A stretch of DNA of 64,000 nucleotides from NCBI GenBank assembly GCA_965223905.1, contig CBDCXV010000001.1, positions 1,120,001 to 1,184,000 on the forward strand. The letters are read 5' to 3'. A model generated the notes under the pieces. The model saw nothing but the letters and a program-made list of their open reading frames with translations. It was not told the origin of the DNA and made no database searches. Below, one piece after another: positions 40,953 to 64,000 of this stretch. A program made the translations under genes and the position numbers. Positions within the stretch are counted from its first letter, which is position 1, and each line of letters begins with the position of its first letter. The stretch is from Candidatus Latescibacterota bacterium (GTDB lineage Bacteria > Latescibacterota > UBA2968 > UBA8231).

Positions 40953-42527
40953 GGGCGTCTTAAGTAATTGTTATAGCGCAATTCAGGTGCGTATGTGTAT
41001 ATTTTACAGTAAGTTGCTTTCTTTTTCCGCATCCCCTGCGGCGCGCTCCCCTGATTTCAGAAAGAAGGGGAGCGATGAGTGCGATTCTCTCTCTGGAAGT
41101 TTTTCAGGAGCGGCAGAGTCAGGACCGCTTTCGAAGCCGGGCGCATGAAGCCTTGGACCAATGGCTGGATCGGGTGGAGACGCAAATGAGCGAGCGCGGA
41201 TCTTGTGCGCCGACGTTGATGGAGATCACCGCGGCGATGTCTCAAGAGCGCTCCGGGCTCACCGCGGCCTTGGTGGAAGCCTTCGTCGAACGCCGCCACG
41301 GCCATTTCCTGGCCCAGGAAGAGGCGGCCTGCCCCAAGTGCAAAGGCCTGCTGCGAGCGCGCCCGTCTCGCTCGCGCACGGTGGAGACGCTGCTCGGGCC
41401 GGTGACCTTGGAGCGTCCCTATTTCTACTGCGTTGGCTGTCACCACGGGTTCTATCCGCTGGACGAGGCCCTGGGCCTGTCGGCGCAGCGCAAGCAGTGG
41501 GACGTGCAGCAGGCCGGGGTCAAGCTGGGGCTGGAGATGCCCCACCGGCGCGCCGCCGAACTGTTGGACGAGCTCACCGACGCGTCGATGAGCGATTGTG
41601 TGATTCACGAGGTGCTGCAACAGACCGGGTCGTTGGACGTGCTGCAGGTGTGTCCGGACGCGGCCGATATCCAGGATCGCATTGCGCAAGCCGCCGCCGG
41701 TCGCAAGTGGCGGCCGATCGTGGTGTTGGCCATCGACGCGGCCGACGTGCCCAGTCGTCCCCAGACCGCCAAAGGCACCCGTCCCGGACGCAAGAAGAGC
41801 CGGGCTCGGCGAAGGCGTTGGCAGGGGGAATACCACGAAGCCAAGGGCTTTCGCTTCTACCTGATAGACGATGAGCGCATCGAGCAGCTGATCTCCTGGC
41901 ACCAGATGGGCAACGAACAGGCCTTCGGCGCGGCCTTGCGCCAGGTCAAGGAGGCGGGGCTGATCCCGGAGGATCAGGTGCGCTTGTGTGCCATCGGAGA
42001 TGGCGCTCCGTGGATCTGGAAGTGGGTGGAAGAGCTGTTCCCGAGCGCCCGTCAGATCCTCGACTACTACCATTGCAGCAGCTACCTGCACGCGGTGGCC
42101 GAGGCCCAATACGGCGCCGATGCGGCGCGTGCTGCCCATTGGCTGGAAGCGACCCTGGCGCGCCTGTTCTGCGGCGAGGGCAGCGGCGTGGTCTGGGGTC
42201 TGCAGCGCATGCAGCCGCTCTCGGAAGAGGCCGGAGAGGCCATCGGCACGGCCTTGACCTACCTGCAAAAGCGACTGCACCAGGTCGATTTCGGCAGCCA
42301 TCGCAAGGGCGGATACCCGATCGGGTCGGGGGCGATCGAATCGGCGCATCGCTTCATCGGCCACGTTCGTCTGAAACGGTCGGGCGCTTGGTGGTATAAG
42401 GAAAACAGCAACGCCATTCTGGCCCTGCGCTGCGCCTTGTACAATGGAACGCTTGACCGGGTCTTTCAGCAGTACCGAGAAAACCTAAAAACAACCACCG
42501 AAACCGTAACAATCAGCTAAGACACCC
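40953..42527 (+). mobile_element. IS element, probably ISKra4 family (1575 bp)
   Basis: IRs GGGCGTCTTAAGTAATTGTTA / TAACAATCAGCTAAGACACCC; 8-bp TSD TATTCGGT at 40945-40952 and 42528-42535. Confidence 0.9.
41075..42520 (+). CDS. ISKra4-type DDE transposase
   Basis: CPKC/YCVGC, GDGAPWIW, LDYYH, IGSGAIES, RLKRSGAWW. Confidence 0.9.
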   Translation: MSAILSLEVFQERQSQDRFRSRAHEALDQWLDRVETQMSERGSCAPTLMEITAAMSQERSGLTAALVEAFVERRHGHFLAQEEAACPKCKGLLRARPSRSRTVETLLGPVTLERPYFYCVGCHHGFYPLDEALGLSAQRKQWDVQQAGVKLGLEMPHRRAAELLDELTDASMSDCVIHEVLQQTGSLDVLQVCPDAADIQDRIAQAAAGRKWRPIVVLAIDAADVPSRPQTAKGTRPGRKKSRARRRRWQGEYHEAKGFRFYLIDDERIEQLISWHQMGNEQAFGAALRQVKEAGLIPEDQVRLCAIGDGAPWIWKWVEELFPSARQILDYYHCSSYLHAVAEAQYGADAARAAHWLEATLARLFCGEGSGVVWGLQRMQPLSEEAGEAIGTALTYLQKRLHQVDFGSHRKGGYPIGSGAIESAHRFIGHVRLKRSGAWWYKENSNAILALRCALYNGTLDRVFQQYRENLKTTTETVTIS

Positions 42528-51401: not shown

Positions 51402-52011
51402 GATCGTGTCCTGGCTCGCCCATATCCCGCCGCGGCAGGGAGCCGCTTTTCAGGCCGGTCCATTTGCGGGTAACAATCGCGATTCAATCCGGGTGAGCTC
51501 ATCTGGGTGGGATTCTCTTCTCGGTTCGTTCTGGCCAGCCCGACTGCGATAATCCATTTCCGCACAGGAGCCAGGCATGGATGACAGGGAGCGGTATTAC
51601 TGGGACCTGACGGGGTACCTGATCGTCAAGGGAGTCCTCGGTCCGGAGGAGCTGCAAAGGGCCAACGAGGGGGTCGATTACTGTCTTCAACACCACGCCT
51701 TCGATCCGGTGATGGATTCCGCCCGCCAGTCGCGGGCCCTGGGCGGTTCGCAGCGGCGGGCCATCCAGGCCGACATGGTCCTGCTGACCCTGGAGAAGCC
51801 GCACTGCGATCCGTTCCGTGAGATGCTCGCCCACCCGCAGGTCGTCGCCCGGCTCAACGCCATGTGCGGGCCCGGGTTCCGGTTCGATCACGGCCCCCAC
51901 TTCATCGGCGGCGTCAAAGGGACGGAGGGCCTGGTAATGCACGGTGCCGGCGAACCCCACCGGCCCTACGTCGGTTACCACCACCAAGGCGGCGAGTCCC
52001 ACTGCCAGGGG

Positions 52012-53681
52012 CCTGAATCCGTGATCACTTCTATAGCAAATGGTCAAGTTTGATATTTAGCATGATCAGGCACTTCTCAACAGAGGATTTGGGTGTCAAC
52101 GACTCGCCATTACGGCTGATGCCGCTGTCGGTGGCTCTCGACGTCGGCTGGAGTCGCAAGAACGGGCATACAGGTGCCTTGCGTACGGCGGAGAGTCGAG
52201 TGCGGGTGAGATCGTCGCCTTCAGGTGCACACACGCAGGTAGGTCCGTCTCCAGACATCGAACCAGGGATTGAAACACCCGAAGCTGAGGCCGAAACGGC
52301 GCGCATGCCGGACCCAGCGGGCCGCTTGGTACATGAGATCGAGAAGGACGCTGCGGAGACGACGACGGCCGGCCTTTTTACGAAAAGCCACGTGCTTTTC
52401 GGGGGGCAGATTGCCGGACTCGCGCAGACCGATTTGGCCGCACAGGCGCAGAGCGTTGTAGGCCATCATGGCCAGCAGCAGCAGGAGCGCGTTGGTGGCG
52501 AACTTGCCCGACGGCAGGCGTTCCAGATCCAGGTCCGTTTTCAACTCGGAGTGGAATTGCTCGCAGGTGCTGTGCTCGCGGTAGAGCCGGATCACGTGCG
52601 CCGGCGGCGCCATCAGGTTGGTCCACCAGGTCTGCACCTCGATTTCGGGGATCAGCAGCGCCTGACCGTCGACGCTGATCGTGCGCCGCACGACCTCGTA
52701 AACGACGCGTTCGAAGGTGTCCTTGCGCTCGCACACCAGCGAGCCGGTGAAGATCTCCTTGCCGGGCCGCGGACAGGTGCGCTCGCCCAGGGCTTCGGCG
52801 TCCTCCAGCCAGGTCTGTTTCGATTCGCTGCGCAGGTTGCGTTTGACGATGAAGTCGGTCTTGGGAGTGCGGCGCAACTGCTGTACGGTGGCGATGTCGT
52901 CATGGGCGCTGTCCATGCGCACCAGCAGCTTTTCCTTGGTGATGCGGCGCGCCAGCCGCAGCGTCTCTCGAATAAAGTCCGGGGCTCCTTCCTGGGAGTG
53001 CTGACTGCCTTCGCGCAGCTGGCAGTTGAGCAGATACCCTTCCTCGCCCAGGTAGGCGAAGATCGGGGCAAAGCCGTCGACCTTCTTGTAGGTCCACGAC
53101 ACCCCTTGTTTTTTGGTGTGGGAGTTGTCGAACACCGACACGTCGATATCCAGCGCGATCCAGGGACCGTAGCGCCCGTCGGCGACTTCGTAACAGGGGG
53201 TGAGCGGCGGCGCGTGACGGGCCACCATGTCGGCCGACTCCTCTCGAATGGCGGTCTCCCCCTGTGCGCCCAAGCCATCGAGCCGCTGCCGCAGCGTGGC
53301 CGCCGACGGCACCGCATCCAGGCCCAGGGCCTGGGCGAAGAAGGGATCGGTGCGAAACGCTTCCACCGCCTCGAAATCCGGCTTGCCCAGCGCCAGCAAG
53401 CCGATCATCGACGTCATCACGTCGCCGTGAGAAACCTCGGGGCAGGGTCGCTCCGGCAAGAGGATTTCATCCACCCGCGCGGCCAAGCGCGTGCGTCCCA
53501 TCAAGGCCCCGATCAAGGCCAAGCCCGAATGCGAGGTCAGCGCTTCTTCGCCCTGCGTAACTTCATACGAAACCAGTCGCAATTCTTCACCTCCAAGGTG
53601 AGTGGATATCCTCCTCTAAGATAGCCCACATTCCCCTCGGAAAACCACCGAAAATCAAGCTCTGGACTTCACGGATTCAGG
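52012..53681 (-). mobile_element. IS1380-family element (1670 bp)
   Basis: IRs CCTGAATCCGTGA / TCACGGATTCAGG; 5-bp TSD AGGGG at 52007-52011 and 53682-53686. Confidence 0.92.
52221..53582 (-). CDS. IS1380-family transposase
   Basis: LTSHSGL, LDIDVS, VRMDSA, EQFHSELKTD, PSGKFATN. Confidence 0.92.
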   Translation of the reverse strand: MRLVSYEVTQGEEALTSHSGLALIGALMGRTRLAARVDEILLPERPCPEVSHGDVMTSMIGLLALGKPDFEAVEAFRTDPFFAQALGLDAVPSAATLRQRLDGLGAQGETAIREESADMVARHAPPLTPCYEVADGRYGPWIALDIDVSVFDNSHTKKQGVSWTYKKVDGFAPIFAYLGEEGYLLNCQLREGSQHSQEGAPDFIRETLRLARRITKEKLLVRMDSAHDDIATVQQLRRTPKTDFIVKRNLRSESKQTWLEDAEALGERTCPRPGKEIFTGSLVCERKDTFERVVYEVVRRTISVDGQALLIPEIEVQTWWTNLMAPPAHVIRLYREHSTCEQFHSELKTDLDLERLPSGKFATNALLLLLAMMAYNALRLCGQIGLRESGNLPPEKHVAFRKKAGRRRLRSVLLDLMYQAARWVRHARRFGLSFGCFNPWFDVWRRTYLRVCT

Positions 53682-54145
53682 AGGGGGTGACCGTCTCCTG
53701 GTTCCTGGCGGACGCGGGCCCCGGAGACGGGGGTTTCGCCTGCGTTCCCGGAAGCCACAAGTCGCGCGAGCCGATACCGCCGGGAGTGCGGTCGTGCGAC
53801 GCCGACATGGGCGTCGTCGAGCAGCCGGTGGTCGAAGCGGGGGACGTGCTGTTCTTCATGGACGGCGCCCAGACCCACGGCACCCTGCGGTGGAACGCCG
53901 ACCACGAGCGGCGCTCCATCCTGTTCAAGTACGCCGGCCGCACCGCCTCCCGGGGAGGGGCCTCGCGGGAGGTGTCCCGGCCAGAGCGCTACTGGCCCGC
54001 CGAGATCGTCGACGGCATGAGCGATGAGCAGCGGGCGGTGATGTTCGGGCCCTGCTCCGCCCCGGGGACGGACAAGGTGTTTCTGCGGGTGGATGAGGAC
54101 GGCACGGTCCGCGTCGACCGGAAGGACGGGTAGCCGATCAGGACC

Positions 54146-54325
54146 TTTGCTGAATTTGAACTACGGACAATGCTGGATAATGCCTCAGAATTGGTACCCG
54201 CCCACAATCAGGGGCGCTGGATTATCCATACTCACCATACAGGACAACCATGGCGTGTGGTGGTCGAGCCAGATCCAGAAGACCAAATCCTGATGATCGT
54301 AACGGCATTTCCTAAAGAGGTGTAA
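54146..54325 (+). pseudogene. 5'-truncated DUF4258-like toxin
   Basis: Hand translation FAEFELRTMLDNA...GRWII...PWRVVVEPD...IVTAFP; no N-terminus; abuts a DUF2283-like gene. Confidence 0.6.
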
Positions 54326-54327
54326 CC

Positions 54328-54597
54328 ATGAAAACTGTTTCTTTACAAATCACATATCGTAAGGGCAAACCATTCGCTGCCTATATTTACCTATCCCGCC
54401 AGAACGGCCAAAAAAGTGTCCGCACTGAAGTCATATCCGAGGATCTCCTGATTGACTACGCTCAGGACGAGACACCTCTTGGGATTGAAATAGTCTCTCC
54501 TGAAATGGTGAGCATTGACGAAATACAGGCAGTCTTTGATCGCTTGGGGCTTGGTAGACCATCACTTATAGAACTGGAACCACTTAAAGCAGCGTAG
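54328..54597 (+). CDS. DUF2283-like protein (putative antitoxin)
   Basis: AAYIYL, LLIDY...PLGIEI. Confidence 0.75.
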   Translation: MKTVSLQITYRKGKPFAAYIYLSRQNGQKSVRTEVISEDLLIDYAQDETPLGIEIVSPEMVSIDEIQAVFDRLGLGRPSLIELEPLKAA

Positions 54598-54599
54598 CC

Positions 54600-55085
54600 A
54601 CCTTGCCCATCATGACTGACGAGAAGACCTCGTCGTCATACCACGTCTTCCCCCCGCTCGTCGAAAATTTCCGCCCAAGTTGGTTTGAGCAAACGTCGAC
54701 GAACCCATTGATCTGGGGACTGTTGACCCGCGTGGTTCGGTGTTCGATTCCTTCCAGCTGTAGAAACAACTCGTAGGGAAAACCGTCCTGCCCGCCCTAG
54801 TATTCCTGTCCGTTGTCGGAGAGGGCTACTTGGATGGAAGCCAAATGCTTCTCAAAGACCCTGCAAGACTTGGTTGTTGAGCAGCTGCCCCGCCGTCAGC
54901 GACAGCCTGTTGGGAAGAGCCGGGCCCAGGCGTAGCGGCTGTGGCAGTCAATGGCGGGTCCCGACGCGGGAGGTGTCCACGCCGAGCAGCTCGCCGGTGT
55001 ACAGAGTCTCGATGTGGCGATTCGCAAAGTCGGGACTGAACCGCTCTTGGGGGTCGGATTTACTGCTCGCTCAATTCGAGACGTC
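54600..55085 (-). pseudogene. Degenerate IS481-family transposase remnant
   Basis: Fragments RHIETLYTGELLGVDT, LSDNGQEY, YELFLQLEGIEHRTTRVNSPQING with stops and frameshifts. Confidence 0.75.
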
Positions 55086-55138
55086 GCTCCTGGATGAGGA
55101 CGGCACGGTCGGAGTCGACCCGAAGGACGGTTAGCCTG

Positions 55139-56021
55139 TCAGGACCGGGCGGGGCCCAACAGCGTGTCGAGTGGGCTCTCGATCCGCACCAGGTCCTTCC
55201 GCCGCACGTGGGTGTAGATCTCCGTCGTTTTGGAGCTCCTGTGTCCGAGGAGCTCCTGTATGTAGCGCAGATCGGTCCCCCCTTCGAGCAGGTGCGTCGC
55301 AAAGCTGTGTCTCAGGGTGTCCACGGTCACCCGCTTGCGGATTCCCCGCGGCGGCAACCGCACGGGAGAACACTTTCTGCACCGACCGTTCGGTGAGATG
55401 CCGTCCTTCCCGGGCTCCGGGAAACAGCCACGTCGACTGCCGGTACGCCTTCCAGTAGGACCGAAGATCCTCGAGAATCGACCTGGGCAGCAGGGTGTAG
55501 CGATCCTTGCGCCCCTTGCCCTGCTGCACGCGGATCAACATGCGATCGCTGTCGATGTCGCTCACCTTGAGACGCACGACCTCCCCCACACGCAGCCCCC
55601 CGGCATACACCAGGGCCAGGATGACCCGGTGCTTGGGATTCCGAAGGGAATCGAGCAGTCGCAGCATTTCCCGCTGGCTGAGGATTTCGGGAAGCTGGCG
55701 ACCGCCACGCGGCCTGCGCAGACCCTCCAGGGAGGCGGGCTGCTTAAGGACTTCCCCGTAGAGGAAACTGAGAGCACTGTATGCGATGTTGAAGGCGGAG
55801 CGGCTCACCCCGCGGTCGAGGAGCCATTCGAGGTGGGACCGCACCTCGTCATGCCGTTCCCCCCGGTAGTCCCGTTTCCACTGAAGGAATCGCCGGCAGT
55901 AGCCCATGTACGACTTCTGCGTTTTCCTCGCGTACCCCCTCAGCTTCAGCTCGGATTCGACCCGGTTCAGGGTGTCGACCTCTTCGTCGGTCAGGTCTGG
56001 ATGTCTCCGATAGCGCCGCAT
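55139..56021 (-). CDS. Tyrosine recombinase (integron-like integrase with N-terminal SAM-like domain), apparent +1 frameshift near 55345
   Basis: [40 protein letters not shown]; no IntI-specific insertion. Confidence 0.9.
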
Positions 56022-56156
56022 GGGCCCGGTTACTCCAAGGCAAAGGTTTGGCCCTGCCGTAGAGAAAGCCGTGCCAGTCCGACACGGAAACCCGAAATCG
56101 TCCTATCTGTCGCAACCGCAATGAGTTACGCCGGATATCCCGAATCGGGAAAATAG

Positions 56157-56185
56157 TTGCAACTGTTCACCCCGGCACGTACCAT
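56157..56185 (+). promoter_or_regulatory. Pc-like cassette promoter
   Basis: TTGCAA, 17 bp spacer, TACCAT, about 60 bp upstream of the first cassette boundary. Confidence 0.55.
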
Positions 56186-56216
56186 CGTATCAGATAAGTT
56201 ACACCCAGCGGCCATT

Positions 56217-56254
56217 ATCCGAACCATTTGTTCGGATGCAATCAGATATATGAC
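56217..56254 (+). other. attI-like primary recombination site
   Basis: IR ATCCGAAC/GTTCGGAT followed by G|ATATATGAC, complementary to the end of cassette 1. Confidence 0.6.
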
Positions 56255-56344
56255 ATGGGTTGTCACAGTACCAGTGAAATTCGACAGAGGCAAAGCTGGC
56301 ACGGTTGAAATCATGAGCCTGCAGGCGCTGGAGAAAAAACTGAC

Positions 56345-56836
56345 GTGGATCGCGTAGCCGTATTCGCAGATGTACAGAATGTTTACTACACAGTTAAGCA
56401 GCAACATAATTGCCATTTCGACTATGGTTCTTTCCTCAGGGAGGCGACAGCCGGCCGGAAACTGGTGAAGGCAGCAGCCTATGCTATTGACAAAGGCGAC
56501 AGAAAGCAGGCCCAATTTCAGCAAATTCTGAAACGGCTCGGTTTTGAGGTAAAGCTCGCGCCTTATATTCAGAGAGCTGACGGCTCAGCCAAAGGGGACT
56601 GGGACGTGGGCATTACGGTCGATATGTTGGAGTACGCAGATCGCGTGGATGTCGCTGTCCTGGTTTCAGGTGACGGAGACTACGCGCCTGCAATTGACAA
56701 GCTAATCAAGGAATCCAAGGTATCCGTCGAGGTGTACGGTGTCCCAGGACTAACTGCTAGTCGTCTAATCGAATCGTCGACGCGATTTGTGCCAATTCAA
56801 GGAGATCTGTTGCTGCCTATTCCCACCACGTGGTGA
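56345..56836 (+). CDS. Cassette 1: NYN/LabA (PIN-like) domain protein
   Basis: VFADVQN, KGDWDVGITVD, LVSGDGD. Confidence 0.9.
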   Translation: MDRVAVFADVQNVYYTVKQQHNCHFDYGSFLREATAGRKLVKAAAYAIDKGDRKQAQFQQILKRLGFEVKLAPYIQRADGSAKGDWDVGITVDMLEYADRVDVAVLVSGDGDYAPAIDKLIKESKVSVEVYGVPGLTASRLIESSTRFVPIQGDLLLPIPTTW

Positions 56837-56931
56837 CGTGGAAGCGACACTGTTTGCAAAGCCATGCACGCTAACGCACTCTCGCGTCGCTACCTCTCCG
56901 CGTTGATCAGCCTTGGAGCAATCATACCCAC

Positions 56932-57027
56932 GTCATATATCACAGCAATTCACGCTGCCGCCATTCGGCGCTTGGCCTTCGGCAAGTCGCTTTCGCGACT
57001 TCGTGAATTGTGAGAACGTTATGTGAC
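56932..57027 (+). repeat. attC-like site 1
   Basis: GTCATATATC ... CAATTCACG/CGTGAATTG stem ... GTTATGTGAC. Confidence 0.85.
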
Positions 57028-57065
57028 ATGCGAAAACCTGCTATTCTGTTCAGTATAGAAGCCGA

Positions 57066-57954
57066 ATGATCCTCAGAATCTTCATTGCCCTGTTCACTGC
57101 TCAAGTATGGTCACTACCCCAGAGCCAGGCTTGTACGCTAGAGGACAGCGCTATTATCCACAGAATTCAAAGTACCGACGTACTTGTGGAAGCCACTGTG
57201 CTGTCAACGGTGAAGGATACACTAGGTGCATACATCGTACCTAGGGAAGCAACGCTTTCCGTCCAACGGGCTCTAGTGGGTGGCCCGCTATCGGAAGTCA
57301 TACACATGGAGCTCGACTCAACGCTCACCGAATTTTCCTCCTGTCTCGATTTGTATCAGGGCTACGAGGAAGGTGACCATTTTCTTGTCTTCCTCAGTAG
57401 AAAGAAGGATCTGGACGTTTTCTGGGCAGCACCCCACGTTCGTCCCTGGGTCGTTGACTACGATCCTGTGGATCCGTCTATACTTGCTAGATACATAGAA
57501 CAGACCGTTGCGCAGGAGGTAGAGCCTATCGCCTTCAGCTTTGAGGGGCCAGACACGGTTGTCGCCGGGGCCCAATTCAGATCTCGACTCACTATCACGG
57601 AACCGTTTCGACGAAACGCTGAGGGTTAGGATACCTGCAGAGAGGACCCTAGAAACCAGTTTTGAGTTCACTTTCTTGATACAAAATCCTGACGGAGATC
57701 GCTTTCCAGCTGATCACCCAATACTAGTTACAATTAAGCCCGGCGAAACCAAGACTGTTGAGTTGGACGACGCCTTTGAGAAAGTGCCGGAAGGTCATTT
57801 CAAGTATGAGGGAACATTGTGGTTGCCCGGCAACAAGGATCACTCAATCGCATACCACAACCGACTGTTTTCCAGGTGGATGTCTGCTCTACCCACCTCT
57901 GTCGAGCCTTCTTCTTGGGGCAATGTCAAGCATAGTTACTCGTCTTCGCCATGA
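57066..57954 (+). CDS. Cassette 2: secreted protein ending SWGNVK, frameshift near 57600
   Basis: Signal peptide (..SQA-C); removing one G at 57599-57600 fuses the two ORFs. Confidence 0.7.
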
Positions 57955-57965
57955 CCTGTAAACAC

Positions 57966-58058
57966 GTCACATAACACCTCGGTTTGCGCTTCGGCGCTGA
58001 ACGCGCCTCGACCTTCGGCAACCCCTTTGGGGTTCGCAAACCGGAGAACGTTAAATGA
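57966..58058 (+). repeat. attC-like site 2
   Basis: GTCACATAAC ... CGGTTTGCG/CGCAAACCG stem ... GTTAAATGA. Confidence 0.88.
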
Positions 58059-58128
58059 ACATGGGAAAAACGGTTTTATTGCAGTCTATTACACTATATA
58101 CACCGGACATCTAACGAGTGTTTTAACT

Positions 58129-59121
58129 ATGGATATAGAACTTCGGAAAATAGTCTCTGCTATTAGAGATTATGCCGTAGAAAAATTCAGTGATGCAGAG
58201 TGGGTCGATTTTGGGTACGTAACCGAGGCTTCAGATTTGATTGAAAACCATCCTCGACTTTTGAGATCACTTGCTTTTAATGACGATGATTACAGCTACT
58301 GTGCTACACAGGTCGTAAATGAGGCACTGGAAGAGCGCCCCGAGAAAATTCAGGAAGTTGTAGAACACTTTGGCGTCGATCTTTGGCTTGAGGAAAAAGA
58401 TGAACGTCGCCATCAGAGAGTATTTACGGAAACCCGACCGCTTGTTCCTTCCCCACGCTTCTGGCGGGAGGGGTATTTCCGACTCTTCATCAGCCATTTA
58501 GCGGATCACAAAGCCAATGTCCAAAGGCTTAAGCGGGAACTGGAGAAGTGGGGAGTATCTGCATTCGTTGCCCACACAGATATTGAGCCCACTCGAGAGT
58601 GGCAATTGGAGATCGAAGCAGCACTCTTTTCGATGGATGCAATGCTTCCAGTATTGATGCCAGGATTTAAAGAGTCAAACTGGACAGACCAGGAAGTCGG
58701 TGTAGCAATTGGCCTTAGGAAACTTATTATTCCGGCTCGACGAGGTATAGATCCCTACGGATTTATAGGAAAATATCAAGGTTTTCAGGCAGATGGAAGG
58801 ACTGTCGGACAAGTAGCTGAAGATGTCGTTAAAATTCTGCTTAAGAGCGAAAAGACGCGAGCCCAGATAGTTAGAGGTTTATCAGCGCGGATTAAAGTTG
58901 AAGTCAACGATCAGGTTGTTACCTCACGCTTAAAATTGATTGATGAGTTGAAAATTTGGAGCAAAGAGCAGGTAAAAGAGATTCTTGAAAGCGTTCTCAT
59001 CCGAGGTGGTGAGATGGCAGAAGACGTACAGGTAGCCTTCAATGATCTACAGGCTTCGCATGGCGTTGTTATAGTGCCACCGAAAGTAACAGCCTTTGAT
59101 GACGATGACCTTCCTTTCTGA
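58129..59121 (+). CDS. Cassette 3: TIR-domain protein with AbiJ-like N-terminus
   Basis: LFISH, AFVAH.DIEP..EW, WTDQEVG (catalytic Glu); HPRLLRSL.F.D.DY. Confidence 0.85.
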   Translation: MDIELRKIVSAIRDYAVEKFSDAEWVDFGYVTEASDLIENHPRLLRSLAFNDDDYSYCATQVVNEALEERPEKIQEVVEHFGVDLWLEEKDERRHQRVFTETRPLVPSPRFWREGYFRLFISHLADHKANVQRLKRELEKWGVSAFVAHTDIEPTREWQLEIEAALFSMDAMLPVLMPGFKESNWTDQEVGVAIGLRKLIIPARRGIDPYGFIGKYQGFQADGRTVGQVAEDVVKILLKSEKTRAQIVRGLSARIKVEVNDQVVTSRLKLIDELKIWSKEQVKEILESVLIRGGEMAEDVQVAFNDLQASHGVVIVPPKVTAFDDDDLPF

Positions 59122-59141
59122 CAGCAAGAATATATCCCACG

Positions 59142-59239
59142 TCATTTAACATCCCGTTGACGCAGCGCCGCCATACGGCGGCTTGGCCTTCGGCACCCTG
59201 GCTACGCCAGGGTCGTCAACGGAAGAACCGTTATACGAA
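59142..59239 (+). repeat. attC-like site 3
   Basis: TCATTTAAC ... CCGTTGACG/CGTCAACGG stem ... GTTATACGAA. Confidence 0.88.
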
Positions 59240-59291
59240 CTGAGAAAACCGACCATCGTGAATCCGACGCGAATCAGACAAGGGTTTACGA

Positions 59292-60011
59292 ATGATCCTT
59301 GAAGCATTGAATGATCTTTTCACATCAGAATTGCTGGCTGCCCACCCTGAAGAATGGGGCGTGACCGATCATTGTGATGCGCCTTCCGGCGTAGGGTACG
59401 CGACCACGATTACGCCGAGGGCAATTTCGACGGCACTCGACCGCGGTGCCGACGTAATTGTCACGCATCATGACGCCTGGGATTTTATGTATGGACAAAG
59501 AGAGAAGGTATACGATCTCTTACGCGACAACAGCCTGACCCATGTGTGGGCCCGACTGCCGTTGGACCAGTCGGACTTTGGCACATCGGCCACGCTTCTC
59601 TCGAAAATTGGCTGCGTGGAGGTCTGTAAGCCATCGAAAGGTGAAGTACGCCTTGGTGAACTGGATGAATCAACTGACTTCGAGGCGATCCGTTTGAAGC
59701 TCGATTCCCTATTGCAGGACCAACCACGTAGCCTCCATGATTCGGGTCGAGCCATCCGCAGAATAGGCTGCGTGACTGGGGCTGGCGTCTACACGAGTTA
59801 CCTCAAGGATGCGATGCCCCATGGTATTGACCTTTATCTGACAGGAGAGACTAGCCTTTACTTATTGGAGTGTGCCGTCCACCTTGGACTCAGCGCCCTG
59901 GTTTACTCCCACAACTATACCGAGTTGCCAGGAGTCCATATGTTCGCAGAGCGTTTTTGCCAAGCTCTTCAACTCGAGATGAAGGGACACCTCGGTGACT
60001 CTCACTTCTGA
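59292..60011 (+). CDS. Cassette 4: Nif3/YbgI-like dinuclear metal protein
   Basis: IVTHH, LPLD, GCVTGAG, YLTGE, HNYTE. Confidence 0.85.
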   Translation: MILEALNDLFTSELLAAHPEEWGVTDHCDAPSGVGYATTITPRAISTALDRGADVIVTHHDAWDFMYGQREKVYDLLRDNSLTHVWARLPLDQSDFGTSATLLSKIGCVEVCKPSKGEVRLGELDESTDFEAIRLKLDSLLQDQPRSLHDSGRAIRRIGCVTGAGVYTSYLKDAMPHGIDLYLTGETSLYLLECAVHLGLSALVYSHNYTELPGVHMFAERFCQALQLEMKGHLGDSHF

Positions 60012-60029
60012 TTCGGGCGAGCGACTCAA

Positions 60030-60124
60030 TTCGTAACACCGCGGTGTTGCGCTGCGCCGCTGTCGCTCCTTGGCCTCCGGCAAGCCGGCAACGCCAGGTT
60101 CGCAAACCGTGAGACGTTATATGG
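60030..60124 (+). repeat. attC-like site 4
   Basis: TTCGTAAC ... CGGTGTTGCG/CGCAAACCG stem ... GTTATATGG. Confidence 0.8.
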
Positions 60125-60134
60125 AATATCTGAA

Positions 60135-60895
60135 ATGAGAAAAGAAGAATCAATCGACGGAGACTATCTGGCCCCAGCGAAATACGACAAATACTACGAC
60201 GCGTATGCTACGCTTCCAGAACGGTTTCTGGCTGACCTCGCCTCTCGCGGAAGGGTCCTTGAACTGGCATGTGGAACTGGCCGGATAGCAATTCCCATGG
60301 CGGAGAACGGCCTTGAGGTGACCGGGATCGATTATTCCGAGCCGATGGTAAGCCTTGCCAGATCAAAGGCCGAAGACAGACAGGTGAGGGTCGACTGGAT
60401 CCGCGACGATATACGCTGCTTTGACACCGGTAAACGATATGGGTCGATCTTGCTACTGCACAACGCATTATGGCACCTGCACAACCTTTCCGATTTCGAA
60501 GAGTGCATTCGCTGTGTGAAGCGTCATCTCCTTCCGGGTGGTTTCTTCATTTGGACGTCTTTGTCCCTGGGGTGGAGATCCTCAATCGCGACCCAGGCAT
60601 TCGGTACCCATTCTCTAGCTACACGGACGTTGACACGGGACAAGAAGTGCAGGTTACTCAGTCCTACAGGTATGAAGCAGACACCCCGATCGCGCGCATG
60701 GTGCACTACAGAAAGGACTCTGATGAGATCGTTGGGGGTCTGAATCTCCGGATGTATTTCCCGAAGGAACTGGATGCCTTGCTGAAGTACAACGGGATAA
60801 GGATCAAGGAGAAATTCGGGAGCTGGGACCGTGACCCCTTTGGGCCGGACTCCAGGCATCAGCTTTGTTTCTGCACCACCACGGAGGACGGCTGA
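60135..60895 (+). CDS. Cassette 5: class I SAM methyltransferase, frameshift near 60550
   Basis: VLELACGTGR, GIDYS; a missing T in ATTT|GGAC; C-terminus LRMYFPKEL. Confidence 0.82.
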
Positions 60896-60912
60896 GCAGC
60901 CGGAATCGCATA

Positions 60913-61002
60913 TCGGATATCACTCCAATTCACCCGGCGTCGACCGCTCTCCTGAGGCTGTGCCCACCCCGCATGCGCGAGACCGGAATTGTGAGAAAGT
61001 CT
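60913..61002 (+). repeat. Degenerate attC-like site 5
   Basis: GATATCACTCCAATTCAC ... GAATTGTGAGAAAGT resembles site 1; core eroded. Confidence 0.5.
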
Positions 61003-61165
61003 GGGGACCTTAGGATGAATTAGTCGCGAGATACGGGAGATAATTCAGGCATGGCCAACTTGAAGGACGGGCCCTTCGACAAGCGCGTCGATTACGACCC
61101 GGATAGCAATGTTCCTGTTCTGTCCCCGGCATACGCAGTGGACTTCGAAGAATTTCGAGAGGTAG

Positions 61166-61705
61166 GTGATGAAATCTGAATACGTGATGGCGTTGATTTT
61201 TCGAATTCTGGGCCTTCTGTTGGGACTTCAAGCAGTAGCCTTCATCCCGGGCATAATGTTGGCGACTTCAGAGCCGTTTTCCGGGGGTTCGCCAACATGG
61301 CCGCTCGTGATGCCTCAAGTGCTCGGATTGGTGCTGTGTCTGCCAGTAGCTTTCGTGTTGTTTCGCTACGGACGATGGCTTGCCAACCTCGTTGTGGGTG
61401 AAGACGAGCATCTGGAACTGGCGGGAGTGGCCGTAGAGACCGCCGATACCCTACCGGTTTTTCGTTTGCTCTTGCGCGTTGTTGGCGCATTCGTTGTTGC
61501 CTGGTCGGTGCCCGAGTTGGCCGGTCATGGTTTCGGCCACGTGATGCTGTACCAGATGAGCGGCCCGCAAATCTGGACTCAGATCGCCCCGGGCGTTGTG
61601 AAGCTGGCTATAGGCGTATATCTGCTCAAAGGTGGGACACACCTTGTACGCTTCGCGTACGGCTCCCAGGCCATATCCGATGACCCAGGAAATGACGAAA
61701 CCTGA
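61166..61705 (+). CDS. Hypothetical four-TM membrane protein
   Basis: GAGGT RBS; four hydrophobic segments forming two similar halves. Confidence 0.7.
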   Translation: MMKSEYVMALIFRILGLLLGLQAVAFIPGIMLATSEPFSGGSPTWPLVMPQVLGLVLCLPVAFVLFRYGRWLANLVVGEDEHLELAGVAVETADTLPVFRLLLRVVGAFVVAWSVPELAGHGFGHVMLYQMSGPQIWTQIAPGVVKLAIGVYLLKGGTHLVRFAYGSQAISDDPGNDET

Positions 61706-61882
61706 TTACATGCCAGTCTGGAAAGGCATAAGAAAGTCGCTTCCGTGAGGAGGTCATTTGTCGTGTAACAGCGCCATTCCGGATGGAGCTTTCACCTTCG
61801 CCAGAATGCTTCCCAAGTTCGGGAAACCGGCCGACTTGCTGTGAGAAGTGCAAGATCAGATCACCAGGATCGAGGACTCCCG

Positions 61883-62190
61883 ATGTATGAACAGGACAGG
61901 TACGTATTTGACACCCAAGGTTACGTGGTGTGGTGCTTCCCGACATCCTCACTCATTCCGAGGTTGAGCGCCTCGTCGACGCCTTCCCAAGGGATGACAA
62001 GGGTCAGGTCATGCTCGAAGCTCCTGACGACAACTCACATCATGAAAACAGGATCCAGGGAAGGGTGCTCGATCATCGAGCTCTGATTGAGGCCAGCGTC
62101 ACCGGCTACCTGGGACGCAGCTGCATGAAGCATCCTGCCGCCTGGGACATCGGTTCCGTCGGTAGCCTGGGGCCCATCAGGATCGCCTGA
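61883..62190 (+). pseudogene. PhyH-family N-terminal fragment
   Basis: MYEQDRYVFDTQGYVV|LPDILT.SEVE resembles the N-termini at 50520 and 51577; frameshifted and truncated. Confidence 0.55.
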
Positions 62191-62271
62191 TAGGGCACTG
62201 ATTCTCACCGAATCCGACCGGTATGTCCTCAAGGCAGTAGGCGATTTGATTGGAAAAAGGGGGCCCTCGAT

Positions 62272-63015
62272 ATGCCAGGTTTCATGTCATGGAAGGAAAT
62301 GAACTGGCTTCTGCCTGACTTTAATGAGACCGGGTTGATCTACCACGGAAGTCAGCCTGAAAATCTGGCTTCTATCTTCCAGAATGGCCTGATTCCCCAA
62401 TGCAATAGTCCCAGAGATGGGCACGAAACAATCTACAATGCACACTACCGGTACCGGCCCAAGTCCATTCCAGACTGGGTGGATCCGAGACGATGTATTT
62501 TTGGTTACATGAACCGGGCCAGACAAGGAGGCTGGGGCGGCATTGTGGATGGAATAGTCAATGGTGTAACCATTGGCATTAAAGCAGCAGATCATATCAC
62601 TGAGCGGACCTGGACAGCCTGCGTCCGGTTTTCAGATATGGTGGACTGCCCGGAGGAGGCAGGGTACTTCGATACGGAGGAGAGAAAAGCCTTTTTCAAG
62701 GACAGAATGGAACCGGTTTCGTGTAAAGCATACTGGGAGACCAGCCTCTCATTTCACGATAACTTGAAGATTCGCCTGGATCATTTGCTCCCGATGCAGG
62801 GATATCATGAGCTATTGATTTGTTCGGAGATTGATCCTGGGTTACTAAATCTTCGAGGGTTCAGAGTGCGGGGGGCAAATGGAACACGCGAGGTTGTCAG
62901 CAATGACCTGCCCGAGGTGTTTCTGAATGCCGAAGAAAAGCTTCGGAACAACATGCCAATTGTGGGGGAACTGAAGGCCGTCAGCGAATTCTGCGGCCGT
63001 GCCGCCAGCGCCTGA
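62272..63015 (+). CDS. Hypothetical protein, possible ADP-ribosyltransferase fold
   Basis: YHGS...NLASIFQNGLIP and distal ELLI. Confidence 0.6.
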   Translation: MPGFMSWKEMNWLLPDFNETGLIYHGSQPENLASIFQNGLIPQCNSPRDGHETIYNAHYRYRPKSIPDWVDPRRCIFGYMNRARQGGWGGIVDGIVNGVTIGIKAADHITERTWTACVRFSDMVDCPEEAGYFDTEERKAFFKDRMEPVSCKAYWETSLSFHDNLKIRLDHLLPMQGYHELLICSEIDPGLLNLRGFRVRGANGTREVVSNDLPEVFLNAEEKLRNNMPIVGELKAVSEFCGRAASA

Positions 63016-63206
63016 CAACAACGGTTTCCCTTTGAACTGCGGCGGTATTTGCACGGCCGGGCTCAAAGGTGCGTAACAACCCGGGGAGACCAGAGTCTGG
63101 TGACCGCACCCCTGAAAGAAATGCGGGCAGCTGTGGCGGCCATGAAAAACGCAGGTGGGTATTGGCCTGGAGCTGAACCCAACAACGCCAACGAGGAGTC
63201 CCGAGA

Positions 63207-63548
63207 ATGAAAGAGATTGCGCCCACACTTCCGGTATCGGATGTGGAGAAAGCTGTCGAGTTCTATCGGGACAAGTTGGCGTTCAGTGTCGGTTTCCAGA
63301 ATCATCCCGTCTTTGCTTTGGTTCGGCGCGGCGCTGTCAGTATCGGTTTGCAGCTTGCTTCGCAGCGACGGGCAGCCGGGACAGGAAGCTGCTACATCTG
63401 GGTGGATGATGTCAGGGAAATTTATAATGAGTTGTCCGCAAGAGGAGTTGAATTCGCAGATGACATCGCGTTTCGCGATGAATATGAAATGACCGACTTC
63501 GTCCTCCATGATCCGGATGGGAACCACATCGGGATTGGCGGTGACTGA
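63207..63548 (+). CDS. VOC/bleomycin-resistance family protein
   Basis: P.LPVSDVEKAVEFY...LAF, DPDGN. Confidence 0.88.
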   Translation: MKEIAPTLPVSDVEKAVEFYRDKLAFSVGFQNHPVFALVRRGAVSIGLQLASQRRAAGTGSCYIWVDDVREIYNELSARGVEFADDIAFRDEYEMTDFVLHDPDGNHIGIGGD

Positions 63549-63648
63549 GGGGGTCATGAATGCGAATCTGGCAGGTTCCATCGCCCTGACTCCACCTCTA
63601 AGGCCAATGGGGGTAAAAAGCGGACGTTCTTAGTGGAAGCTCGATTCC

Positions 63649-64000
63649 ATGGAACTGACCAGAGATGACATTGAAGCTGGCTTCCGTAATCTCGGCCTGA
63701 AGGAAGGCGAAACAGTTGAAGTTCATAGCTCATTGAGCAGCTTGGGCAATGTGCAAGGGGGAGCTGAAACTGTCGTGGATGCCTTGATGAGTGTCGTGGG
63801 CGAAAGTGGAGCGTTGGTGATGTCCAACTATCCGCTCACTCCCCCGATCCCTTTGACTTCCGAAGAGAAATCCAAGGGAATAGGTTGGAAACTCAGGATT
63901 CTATCCGAGGGCTCAGACGAAAGGACCGTGACCGGGGCCATTTCCGACGAGTTTCGCTTCAGAGCTGATGTTGTATGCGGTTCTGGGACCCGTCGTGTCT
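63649..64000 (+). CDS. AAC(3)/YokD family N-acetyltransferase, runs off the window
   Basis: Hand translation LGLKEGETVEVHSSLSSLGNVQGGAETVVDAL. Confidence 0.85.
   Translation, partial: MELTRDDIEAGFRNLGLKEGETVEVHSSLSSLGNVQGGAETVVDALMSVVGESGALVMSNYPLTPPIPLTSEEKSKGIGWKLRILSEGSDERTVTGAISDEFRFRADVVCGSGTRRV

Follow-up and report, generated by a model that had tools for sequence, protein, structure and literature searches.

The window considered here is a stretch of 64,000 nucleotides from a Candidatus Latescibacterota bacterium (GenBank assembly GCA_965223905.1, contig CBDCXV010000001.1, forward strand; G000:C1:1120001-1184000 in the numbering used below), and its source genome, G000, comprises 7.9 Mb in 11 contigs. 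Towards its right end the window carries a tyrosine recombinase gene, referred to as the short integrase, divergent from an array of cassettes bounded by attC-like sites and separated from them by an attI-type site. The parts of the locus, in window positions and with the crossover point marked by an arrow, are:

55139-56021, minus strand: tyrosine recombinase gene (short integrase), frame broken near 55347
56022-56245, plus strand: integrase-proximal non-coding region, kept with the integrase in relatives
56220-56248, plus strand: attI core, CGAAC-N5-GTTCG, about 10 nt, CAG↓(T/A)TA
56246-57018, plus strand: cassette 1, NYN-domain protein, open reading frame (ORF) 56345-56836, site 1 at 56933-57024
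57019-58050, plus strand: cassette 2, product of no known family, overlapping ORFs 57066-57629 and 57541-57954, site 2 at 57969-58056; absent from genome G002
58051-59230, plus strand: cassette 3, AbiJ_NTD5 + TIR protein, ORF 58027/58130-59121, site 3 at 59144-59236; absent from G002
59231-60116, plus strand: cassette 4, NIF3/DUF34 protein, ORF 59292-60011, site 4 at 60031-60122
60117-61013, plus strand: cassette 5, class I methyltransferase in two frames (60135-60743 and 60470-60895), decayed site at about 60912-61013
61014-64000, plus strand: distal low-GC island, shared at 97% with G002, no attC-like site detected

The arrangement proposed in a sequence-only reading of the window, a recombinase gene divergent from co-oriented, low-GC and functionally unrelated genes, was reproduced. 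The GC content drops from 0.62-0.73 in the integrase-side flank to 0.43-0.58 in the array, the ORFs of the array are all co-oriented and divergent from the recombinase gene, and the five distinct cassette products classified with Pfam (NYN, unknown, AbiJ_NTD5-TIR, NIF3 and methyltransferase) are functionally unrelated. The end of the platform, placed by that reading at 61002, does not hold since the low-GC island runs on to about 10.5 kb beyond the window, without further detectable sites. Nor was the proposed promoter of the type that drives integron cassettes (Pc) recovered: a scan of 56022-56345 for sigma-70-like promoters gave no match, the sigma-70 consensus being possibly not that of this phylum, and the single match found, at 56382-56410, lies within the first ORF, one match being found against 0.5 expected. 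The search of 54000-64000 against Rfam gave no match at E<=0.1. The distal island encodes a membrane protein, a PhyH-like fragment, an unknown protein, a glyoxalase/bleomycin-resistance-like protein (63207-63548) and the start of an Antibiotic_NAT protein (AAC(3)-like, aminoglycoside 3-N-acetyltransferase family; 63649-64000), with no attC-like site detected between the last two genes.

The four strong attC-like sites (sites 1 to 4) are 88-93 nt long and follow one plan, TAAC, stem, branched middle, stem, GTTA. When a covariance model derived from the four was run on them, they reached 89-108 bits on the plus strand, in comparison to no more than 14 bits on the minus strand. Five sites of about 90 bp had been proposed originally; the four stood, with TAAC...GTTA ends and a fold, whereas the fifth proved to be decayed, having no GTTA box and a fold z-score of +0.22, no better than shuffles. 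The model run with filters off over 53900-64000 found no site beyond the four, either at the fifth position or in the distal island. In the whole G000 genome 22 matches were obtained at E<=0.01, of which 4 lie in the window, 13 in another array on contig C10 (C10:1334833-1351814) and 5 elsewhere.

An alignment of 69 model matches from G000 and seven related loci demonstrated that TAAC and GTTA are invariant and that the sequence otherwise varies outside a semi-conserved, longer R box (cAC.tC...TAAC and GTTA...GaaAtg) and the GTTCG motif, which is conserved ahead of the L' stem and recurs in attI. Partners in the stems could pair in 88.4% of 1824 cells, in comparison to 23-41% with the partners slid by 1-3 columns and with none of 500 shuffles reaching the observed value, the alignment having been fitted to the model structure, which inflates these pairing counts. 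In the L box, both-side changes were seen in eight of the nine pairs. In 49 of the 69 sites an unbroken stem of 6 bp or more could be traced, the L-box stem being mostly 6-12 bp long, and in 40 of these 49 measurable sites the R' spacer exceeds the R'' spacer by 2-4 nt (most commonly 7 versus 4). In these sites the extra unpaired bases sit in the central spacer on the R' side, and the L box is free of a bulged base.

The general plan is that of canonical attC sites, R''(..TAAC)-L''-variable part-L'-R'(GTTA..) with the G↓TT crossover, where structure is kept and sequence varies. The sites differ from canonical ones in that the L box is mostly uninterrupted and without the extrahelical base, and that the central bulge is 2-4 nt longer on the R' side. 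According to Bouvier 2009 the extrahelical bases are unpaired bases on the R''-L'' arm, conserved in the folded attC, which are held in two pockets of the integrase. Two sites found beside a canonical IntI of a relative (G021, L142) do carry one bulged base, three pairs deep in the L box. In G002 (L030:7100-7180) a stub of about 25 nt (..CATATATAC GGAAGAC GTTACC..) stands behind the NYN cassette in place of a full site; this stub looks like a site with the L boxes and the middle deleted.

The short integrase is composed of the Pfam domains Phage_int_SAM_4 and Phage_integrase. TIGR02249 (integron integrase) is its best NCBIfam family, but the match covers only profile positions 2-181 and 254-315 of the window protein, in one piece of 128.4 bits and another of 87.2 bits, the cut-off being 265. 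The intact orthologue P0002 reached 233.8 bits in two stretches, again below the cut-off, in comparison to 368.6 and 469.5 bits for two canonical IntIs of relatives. The unmatched part, positions 182-253, and the run of motifs without an insertion confirm the earlier claim that the IntI-specific segment is missing. The GKGxKxR motif stands 61 residues from LRHSFA in the close relatives, as it does in each of the 73 database homologues showing both motifs; the distance is 102 in canonical IntIs (IntI1 and eight others) or, in one case, 119. When P0002 was compared with the structure of VchIntIA (2a3v), its residues 22-187 fell on 10-178 and residues 207-285 on 240-318, leaving 19 residues where the structure has 61, so that about 41-42 residues of the IntI-specific insertion (the I2 helix region near patch III, given as some 35-40 residues in the family definition) are missing from the short integrase. 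An AlphaFold2 model of P0002 built on a 99-row alignment had a predicted local distance difference test (pLDDT) score of 85.0, and its best Foldseek match was 2a3v (E 2.5e-17, 34% identity), with archaeal Xer and XerA ranking behind.

The relation to IntI was also examined in a quick maximum-likelihood tree of 109 rows, in which ORFs of at least 250 aa were cut to their last 345 residues. The broken copy of the window was omitted, as were the fragments in G001, G004, G013, G043 (L022), G066 (L043) and G083 (L041) and the second G020 locus. The canonical IntIs formed a clade of 18 rows with a support of 100 (nine from relatives, eight from other phyla, and IntI1), and a second clade, of 22 rows and with a support of 94, contained the relatives' short integrases. 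Against Xer families P0002 also stayed under every cut-off (XerA_Arch 213.5 bits for a cut-off of 220, XerC 177.3 for 335, XerD 177.6 for 330). An Ignavibacteriota relative narrowly passed, with 220.5 bits, the cut-off of NF040815, which NCBIfam names 'site-specific tyrosine recombinase/integron integrase' and which is among the closest known groups. A recent internal deletion in an IntI was rejected as the origin of the protein on the grounds of the short spacing in 73 of 73 homologues and of the position of the clade outside IntI.

In the window the recombinase frame is broken. Residues 1-226 are encoded in an ORF of 296 aa (55131-56021, minus strand; frame 56021-55344); the C-terminal 68, among them the RHSFATHLL motif, follow in a second frame (55345-55142, within 55139-55363, minus strand). 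One extra G in the G-run near 55347 is the sole length difference from the intact orthologue of G002, a member of the same genus, from which the window gene differs in 22 of 883 alignment columns. At two homopolymers of the array, 56334 and 56853, all four runs from other samples have one base fewer than the window, and G002 likewise has the shorter T-run at 56853. Because the lengths of these homopolymers are contradicted in this way, the frame break of the integrase may be an assembly error, and errors of this kind may bear on the frame breaks of cassette 2 and the methyltransferase as well. Intact copies of the gene, encoding proteins of 293 aa or slightly more, are present in G002, G020, G016 and G080. 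Defective ones were found in G004 (an internal stop) and in G001, G012 and a second locus of G020 (truncations). In all six pairs of intact orthologues the ratio of nonsynonymous to synonymous substitution rates (dN/dS) was 0.066-0.122, and the short integrase is therefore conserved under purifying selection. The missing insertion, the scores below the cut-off, the separate clade and the low dN/dS show that it is not a broken IntI; it represents a lineage alongside IntI, in which it is conserved and under selection. The absence of the IntI segment from the protein coincides with the absence of the extrahelical base from the L box, so that the gap in the protein and the gap in the DNA go together.

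The attI-like site proposed earlier was located through the boundary of homology. DNA similarity between the window and six related loci spans the integrase and the region preceding it and ends at 56248-56259. At the break all of them (L030, L031, L032, L033, L035, L044 and the window) have a common motif, CGAAC-N5-GTTCG followed after about ten bases by CAG↓TTA, the window and G001 having ATA and not TTA after the G. The inverted repeat of this motif carries compensatory changes (ATCCGAAC/GTTCGGAT, ATGCGAAC/GTTCGCAT and ACCCGAAC/GTTCGGGT), and beyond the G the sequence differs in each genome. On this basis the attI crossover is predicted to fall between 56245 and 56246.

Cassette content was found to vary among relatives, as the sequence-only reading would have it, with breakpoints exactly at attI and at the R' box of attC. 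The NYN cassette (56245-57031), the first in the window array, is 98.7% identical to a copy within the G000 array on C10 and matches at 99.3% a copy in G002 preceded by three detected sites; ATATATGACATGG opens this cassette also in the second G000 array and in G002, behind an attC site in both. Cassettes 2 and 3 (56940-59222) are absent from G002, and from the R' box of site 3 on (59222-64000 and a further 4.7 kb) everything is shared with it, at 90-97%. Contigs from other samples point to the same positions: in one contig of run X6, 360 further bases stand exactly between 56245 and the NYN cassette, and a loose contig end in run X2 runs from an attI-type sequence straight into the G at 59230 in the R' box of site 3. 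The low cover of parts of the window by such contigs is no evidence of absence. Four contig joints (56990>60033, 57021>59174, 57022>60099 and 59195>60033) were considered as excisions and rejected, their sides being only 21-27 letters of repeated sequence. Natural differences in cassettes thus fall at the predicted crossover points.

The association of sites and integrase was followed in 101 genomes of the same class, G000 included, which as kin are not independent. P0002 had a match at E<=1e-40 in 20 of them, and hits of the site model at E<=1e-5 were present in 48, that is in 16 of these 20 and in 32 of the other 81; a canonical IntI over the TIGR02249 cut-off was present in 11. Seven loci share the divergent layout, with an integrase or integrase fragment at least 76% identical and 10 kb or more of upstream flank (L030-L035 and L044). 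Each of the seven has model hits at E<0.01 on the side of the integrase start and on the opposite strand, namely 5 in G002, 6 in G020, 4 in G016, 17 in G004, 11 in G080, 13 in G012 and 8 in G001, the window itself having 4, so that arrays reach 17 sites in 20 kb. The co-occurrence expected by the sequence-only reading was therefore observed in 7 of 7 related loci, in comparison to no model hit at E<=0.1 in seven loci of relatives with a canonical IntI (120,839 bases). In none of the genomes G000, G001, G002, G004, G012, G016, G020 and G080 was a canonical IntI over the cut-off found. For the second, truncated copy of G020 the association is ambiguous, and in G013 the contig ends about 300 bases past the gene start. 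The G080 locus (L034) has 14 hits in all, the 11 on the 5' side starting at a distance of about 5 kb from the integrase gene, and a further 3 lying on the 3' side on the same strand. Its attI is followed by about 5 kb without a detectable site, and the integrase may sit inside an array or between arrays.

A second layout was seen in relatives with integrases 51-57% identical (G076, G091, G083, G012-C1, G010, G066 and G046, and weakly G095), where the site hits lie 3' of the integrase and on the same strand. The conserved region stops here about 160 nt past the integrase stop codon, at ..GTTCG..TAG↓TTA with CGAAC...GTTCG palindromes, and the cassettes past this attI are shuffled between two genomes of one genus. 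In G095 (L154:13777-13945) the 3' end of the integrase and the attI region recur in inverted orientation (91% over 169 nt) about 8.8 kb into the array, which suggests a past inversion or a duplication of attI.

Outside the class, 80 loci of family members 33-57% identical, from many phyla (1,056,304 bases), gave no model hits; the model is thus specific, and this result says nothing on other types of site at those loci. A crude TAAC...GTTA detector, which gave 29 matches where the model finds many more and which fires on both strands, served only as a lead to two of these loci, L055 and L124, and provides no rate for the 80. Both were read directly. In the Ignavibacteriota metagenome-assembled genome (MAG) locus L055:10001-17323 the integrase is 49% identical and scores 250.7 bits with TIGR02249 in two stretches; a GAG↓TTAGCC point lies about 120 nt after the gene, and six TAAC...GTTA sites of about 128 nt, each with spacers of 2 and 5 nt, follow on the integrase strand. 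The Cytophagales MAG locus L124:10001-15036 contains three sites of about 88 nt on the same strand, 3.4 kb downstream of a short integrase. The insertion is absent from both integrases, both stay below the TIGR02249 cut-off, and in neither genome was a canonical IntI over the cut-off found.

Taken together, these data make it likely that the locus is a chromosomal integron-type platform, the cognate cassette recombinase of which belongs to an insertion-less clade of the Xer-like superfamily and not to IntI. The locus belongs to a conserved family of integron-like platforms in which a non-IntI recombinase goes with matched, bulge-less attC-like sites. The proposal of a distinct cassette platform made in the sequence-only reading is supported: the protein does not score as a canonical IntI, related integrases are associated with these sites, and cassette content is not invariant. 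In the mechanism envisaged, the recombinase would bind attI beside its own gene as well as the ~90-nt attC-like hairpins in their folded, single-stranded form, and strand exchange would take place, as with IntI, after the G of (C/T)AG↓TTA in attI and of CG↓TTA in the R' box of attC. Promoterless cassettes would thereby be inserted at attI, excised and copied between arrays. Since the sites are mostly without the extrahelical base of the L box, to which the missing I2 segment binds in IntI, their orientation is probably read from the asymmetric central bulge (3-4 versus 6-7 nt), the long R box (CAC.TCA..TAAC / GTTA..TGA.ATG) and the GTTCG motif. That the short integrase and no other enzyme catalyses these events, that its substrate is single-stranded and that the strand is chosen in this way is what we infer from sequence comparison.

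The platform resembles sedentary chromosomal integrons in having an integrase divergent from attI and from a co-oriented array of promoterless, unrelated and compositionally foreign cassettes, in the different cassette order of close genomes, and in VchIntIA being the closest solved structure. It departs from canonical integrons in its recombinase, which is without the insertion, below the IntI cut-off and outside the IntI clade, and in that no Pc-like sigma-70 promoter was found. With Xer proteins such as XerA it shares protein size and domain make-up, but its targets are arrays of ~90-nt hairpin sites bounding cassettes, unlike the one 28-bp dif site of Xer systems, and a separate Xer-like gene is present in G000 on C10. 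The layout of the same-direction relatives and of the Ignavibacteriota locus, integrase, attI and same-strand array, has described counterparts, those, unlike these, with a canonical IntI. Smyshlyaev 2021 (PMC8138268) described the insertion as incompletely conserved within the subgroup of integron-like tyrosine recombinases; no cassette arrays are given there, in the available text, for the insertion-less members, whereas here attI and arrays adjoin them. Cury 2016 reported four recombinases intermediate in the tree that were always beside fewer than three attC sites, in comparison to arrays of up to 17 sites in 20 kb with an attI of their own in the present case. [quoted passage not shown] An IntI-based finder would probably call both the window locus and the second G000 array CALIN, provided that its attC model sees the sites. 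A literature search found no paper describing arrays served by insertion-less integrases, with supplements outside that search (Figures S1 and S5 of Cury 2016 may hold relatives).

Several points weigh against this interpretation. The insertion is called essential for integron function by Smyshlyaev 2021 (PMC8138268), an extra domain separates IntI from other integrases in Neron 2022, and Cury 2016, who found 50 of 18,808 non-IntI recombinases near attC sites, judged those without the IntI-specific region not to be IntI. The tree was made by a quick procedure and does not settle how IntI, the short clade and other Xer-like groups branch relative to one another; the pairing counts of the sites are inflated, as stated above. 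The window integrase is frameshifted, so the window array may now be inert. Sites of this type also occur in 32 of the 81 relatives without a full-length short integrase at E<=1e-40, among them G023 with 28 sites and G090 with 25. The second G000 array (G000:C10:1333458-1351814; L147, L148), larger and of the same site type, with 13 or 16 hits depending on the scan, opens with a 73-bp attI remnant (79% identical; L147:11458-11530) and has no integrase within 11 kb. As arrays persist without the gene, an enzyme acting in trans is conceivable.

One form of this idea is that these are ordinary integron arrays moved by a canonical IntI in trans, at present or in the past, next to which the short recombinase would be a mere neighbour engaged in Xer-like resolution or in the mobility of the island. 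The canonical IntIs of 11 relatives, the site core with TAAC...GTTA and the G↓TT crossover, which is the same as in classical attC, the arrays without any short integrase and the essential role assigned to the insertion in the literature would all agree with it. However, none of the eight genomes with a divergent short integrase and array has an IntI over the cut-off, all seven canonical IntI loci lack such sites, the attC sites of L142 show the classical L-box bulge, unlike the present ones, and attI is tied physically and evolutionarily to the short integrase in two layouts. This explanation is considered unlikely.

Even lower is the probability assigned to a cognate enzyme of the Xer type acting on double-stranded sites, with the hairpin incidental or serving another role, e.g. 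transcription termination. The protein does lack the segment which IntI uses for folded single-stranded substrates; Escudero 2016, which ascribes to IntIs a specific domain for the single-strand pathway, also has IntI itself retaining double-strand activity, and the R box and GTTCG are conserved in sequence. Set against this, the L box and two inner stems stay paired by compensatory change while their sequence varies, which argues for selection on the folded form, the halves of the R box are about 80 nt apart, so that no double-stranded core site is formed, and the polarity of sites is single and consistent within each array. Least probable of all, and hardly credible in our view, is a dead relic, an integrase pseudogene with a fossil array, inactive in every lineage. 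The frameshift of the window copy, the defective copies of G004, G001, G012 and the second G020 locus, and the decay of site 5 and the distal island could be read in that way, but the intact copies of G002, G020, G016 and G080 are under purifying selection, a cassette 98.7-99.3% identical occupies different positions, and contigs from other samples show other first cassettes.

Further features lie near the platform. A segment of 1001 bp (54138-55138), which contains a small low-GC gene pair (a 51-aa ORF and DUF2283), lies between 56-nt direct repeats (54090-54145 and 55091-55146, 89% identical) that represent the duplicated 3' end of a PhyH-like gene; it is missing from G002 and is skipped by one contig of run X6. 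A PhyH-like gene (51577-54133) is interrupted by an insertion sequence with a DDE_Tnp_1_4 transposase (52221-53582, minus strand), which splits it into an N-terminal ORF (51577-52053) and a C-terminal ORF (53687-54133). An ISKra4-family transposase at 41075-42520 (250 bits, cut-off 205) marks a second insertion sequence less than 15 kb from the platform.

In practice it is the insertion that defines an integron integrase, and recognition of the folded attC is held to require it. If the interpretation of the locus given here is correct, cassette platforms are more diverse than current finders detect, some arrays apparently without an integrase would be explained, and the origin of single-strand recombination in integrons would become testable with natural proteins that differ by this segment. 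A new pair of recombinase and site with matched architecture would also be available for mechanistic and synthetic-biology work. The broader view, that a sister lineage of integrons is widespread in bacteria of the FCB (Fibrobacteres-Chlorobi-Bacteroidetes) group (this class, Ignavibacteriota and Cytophagales), where recombinases that never had I2 shuffle attC-type cassettes at sites without classical extrahelical bases, is in our judgement evenly balanced. Should it be true, the insertion would be no prerequisite for single-strand cassette recombination, the platforms would represent the state from which integrons arose or else a solution reached independently, and some of the CALIN arrays now without an explanation would gain a cognate enzyme.

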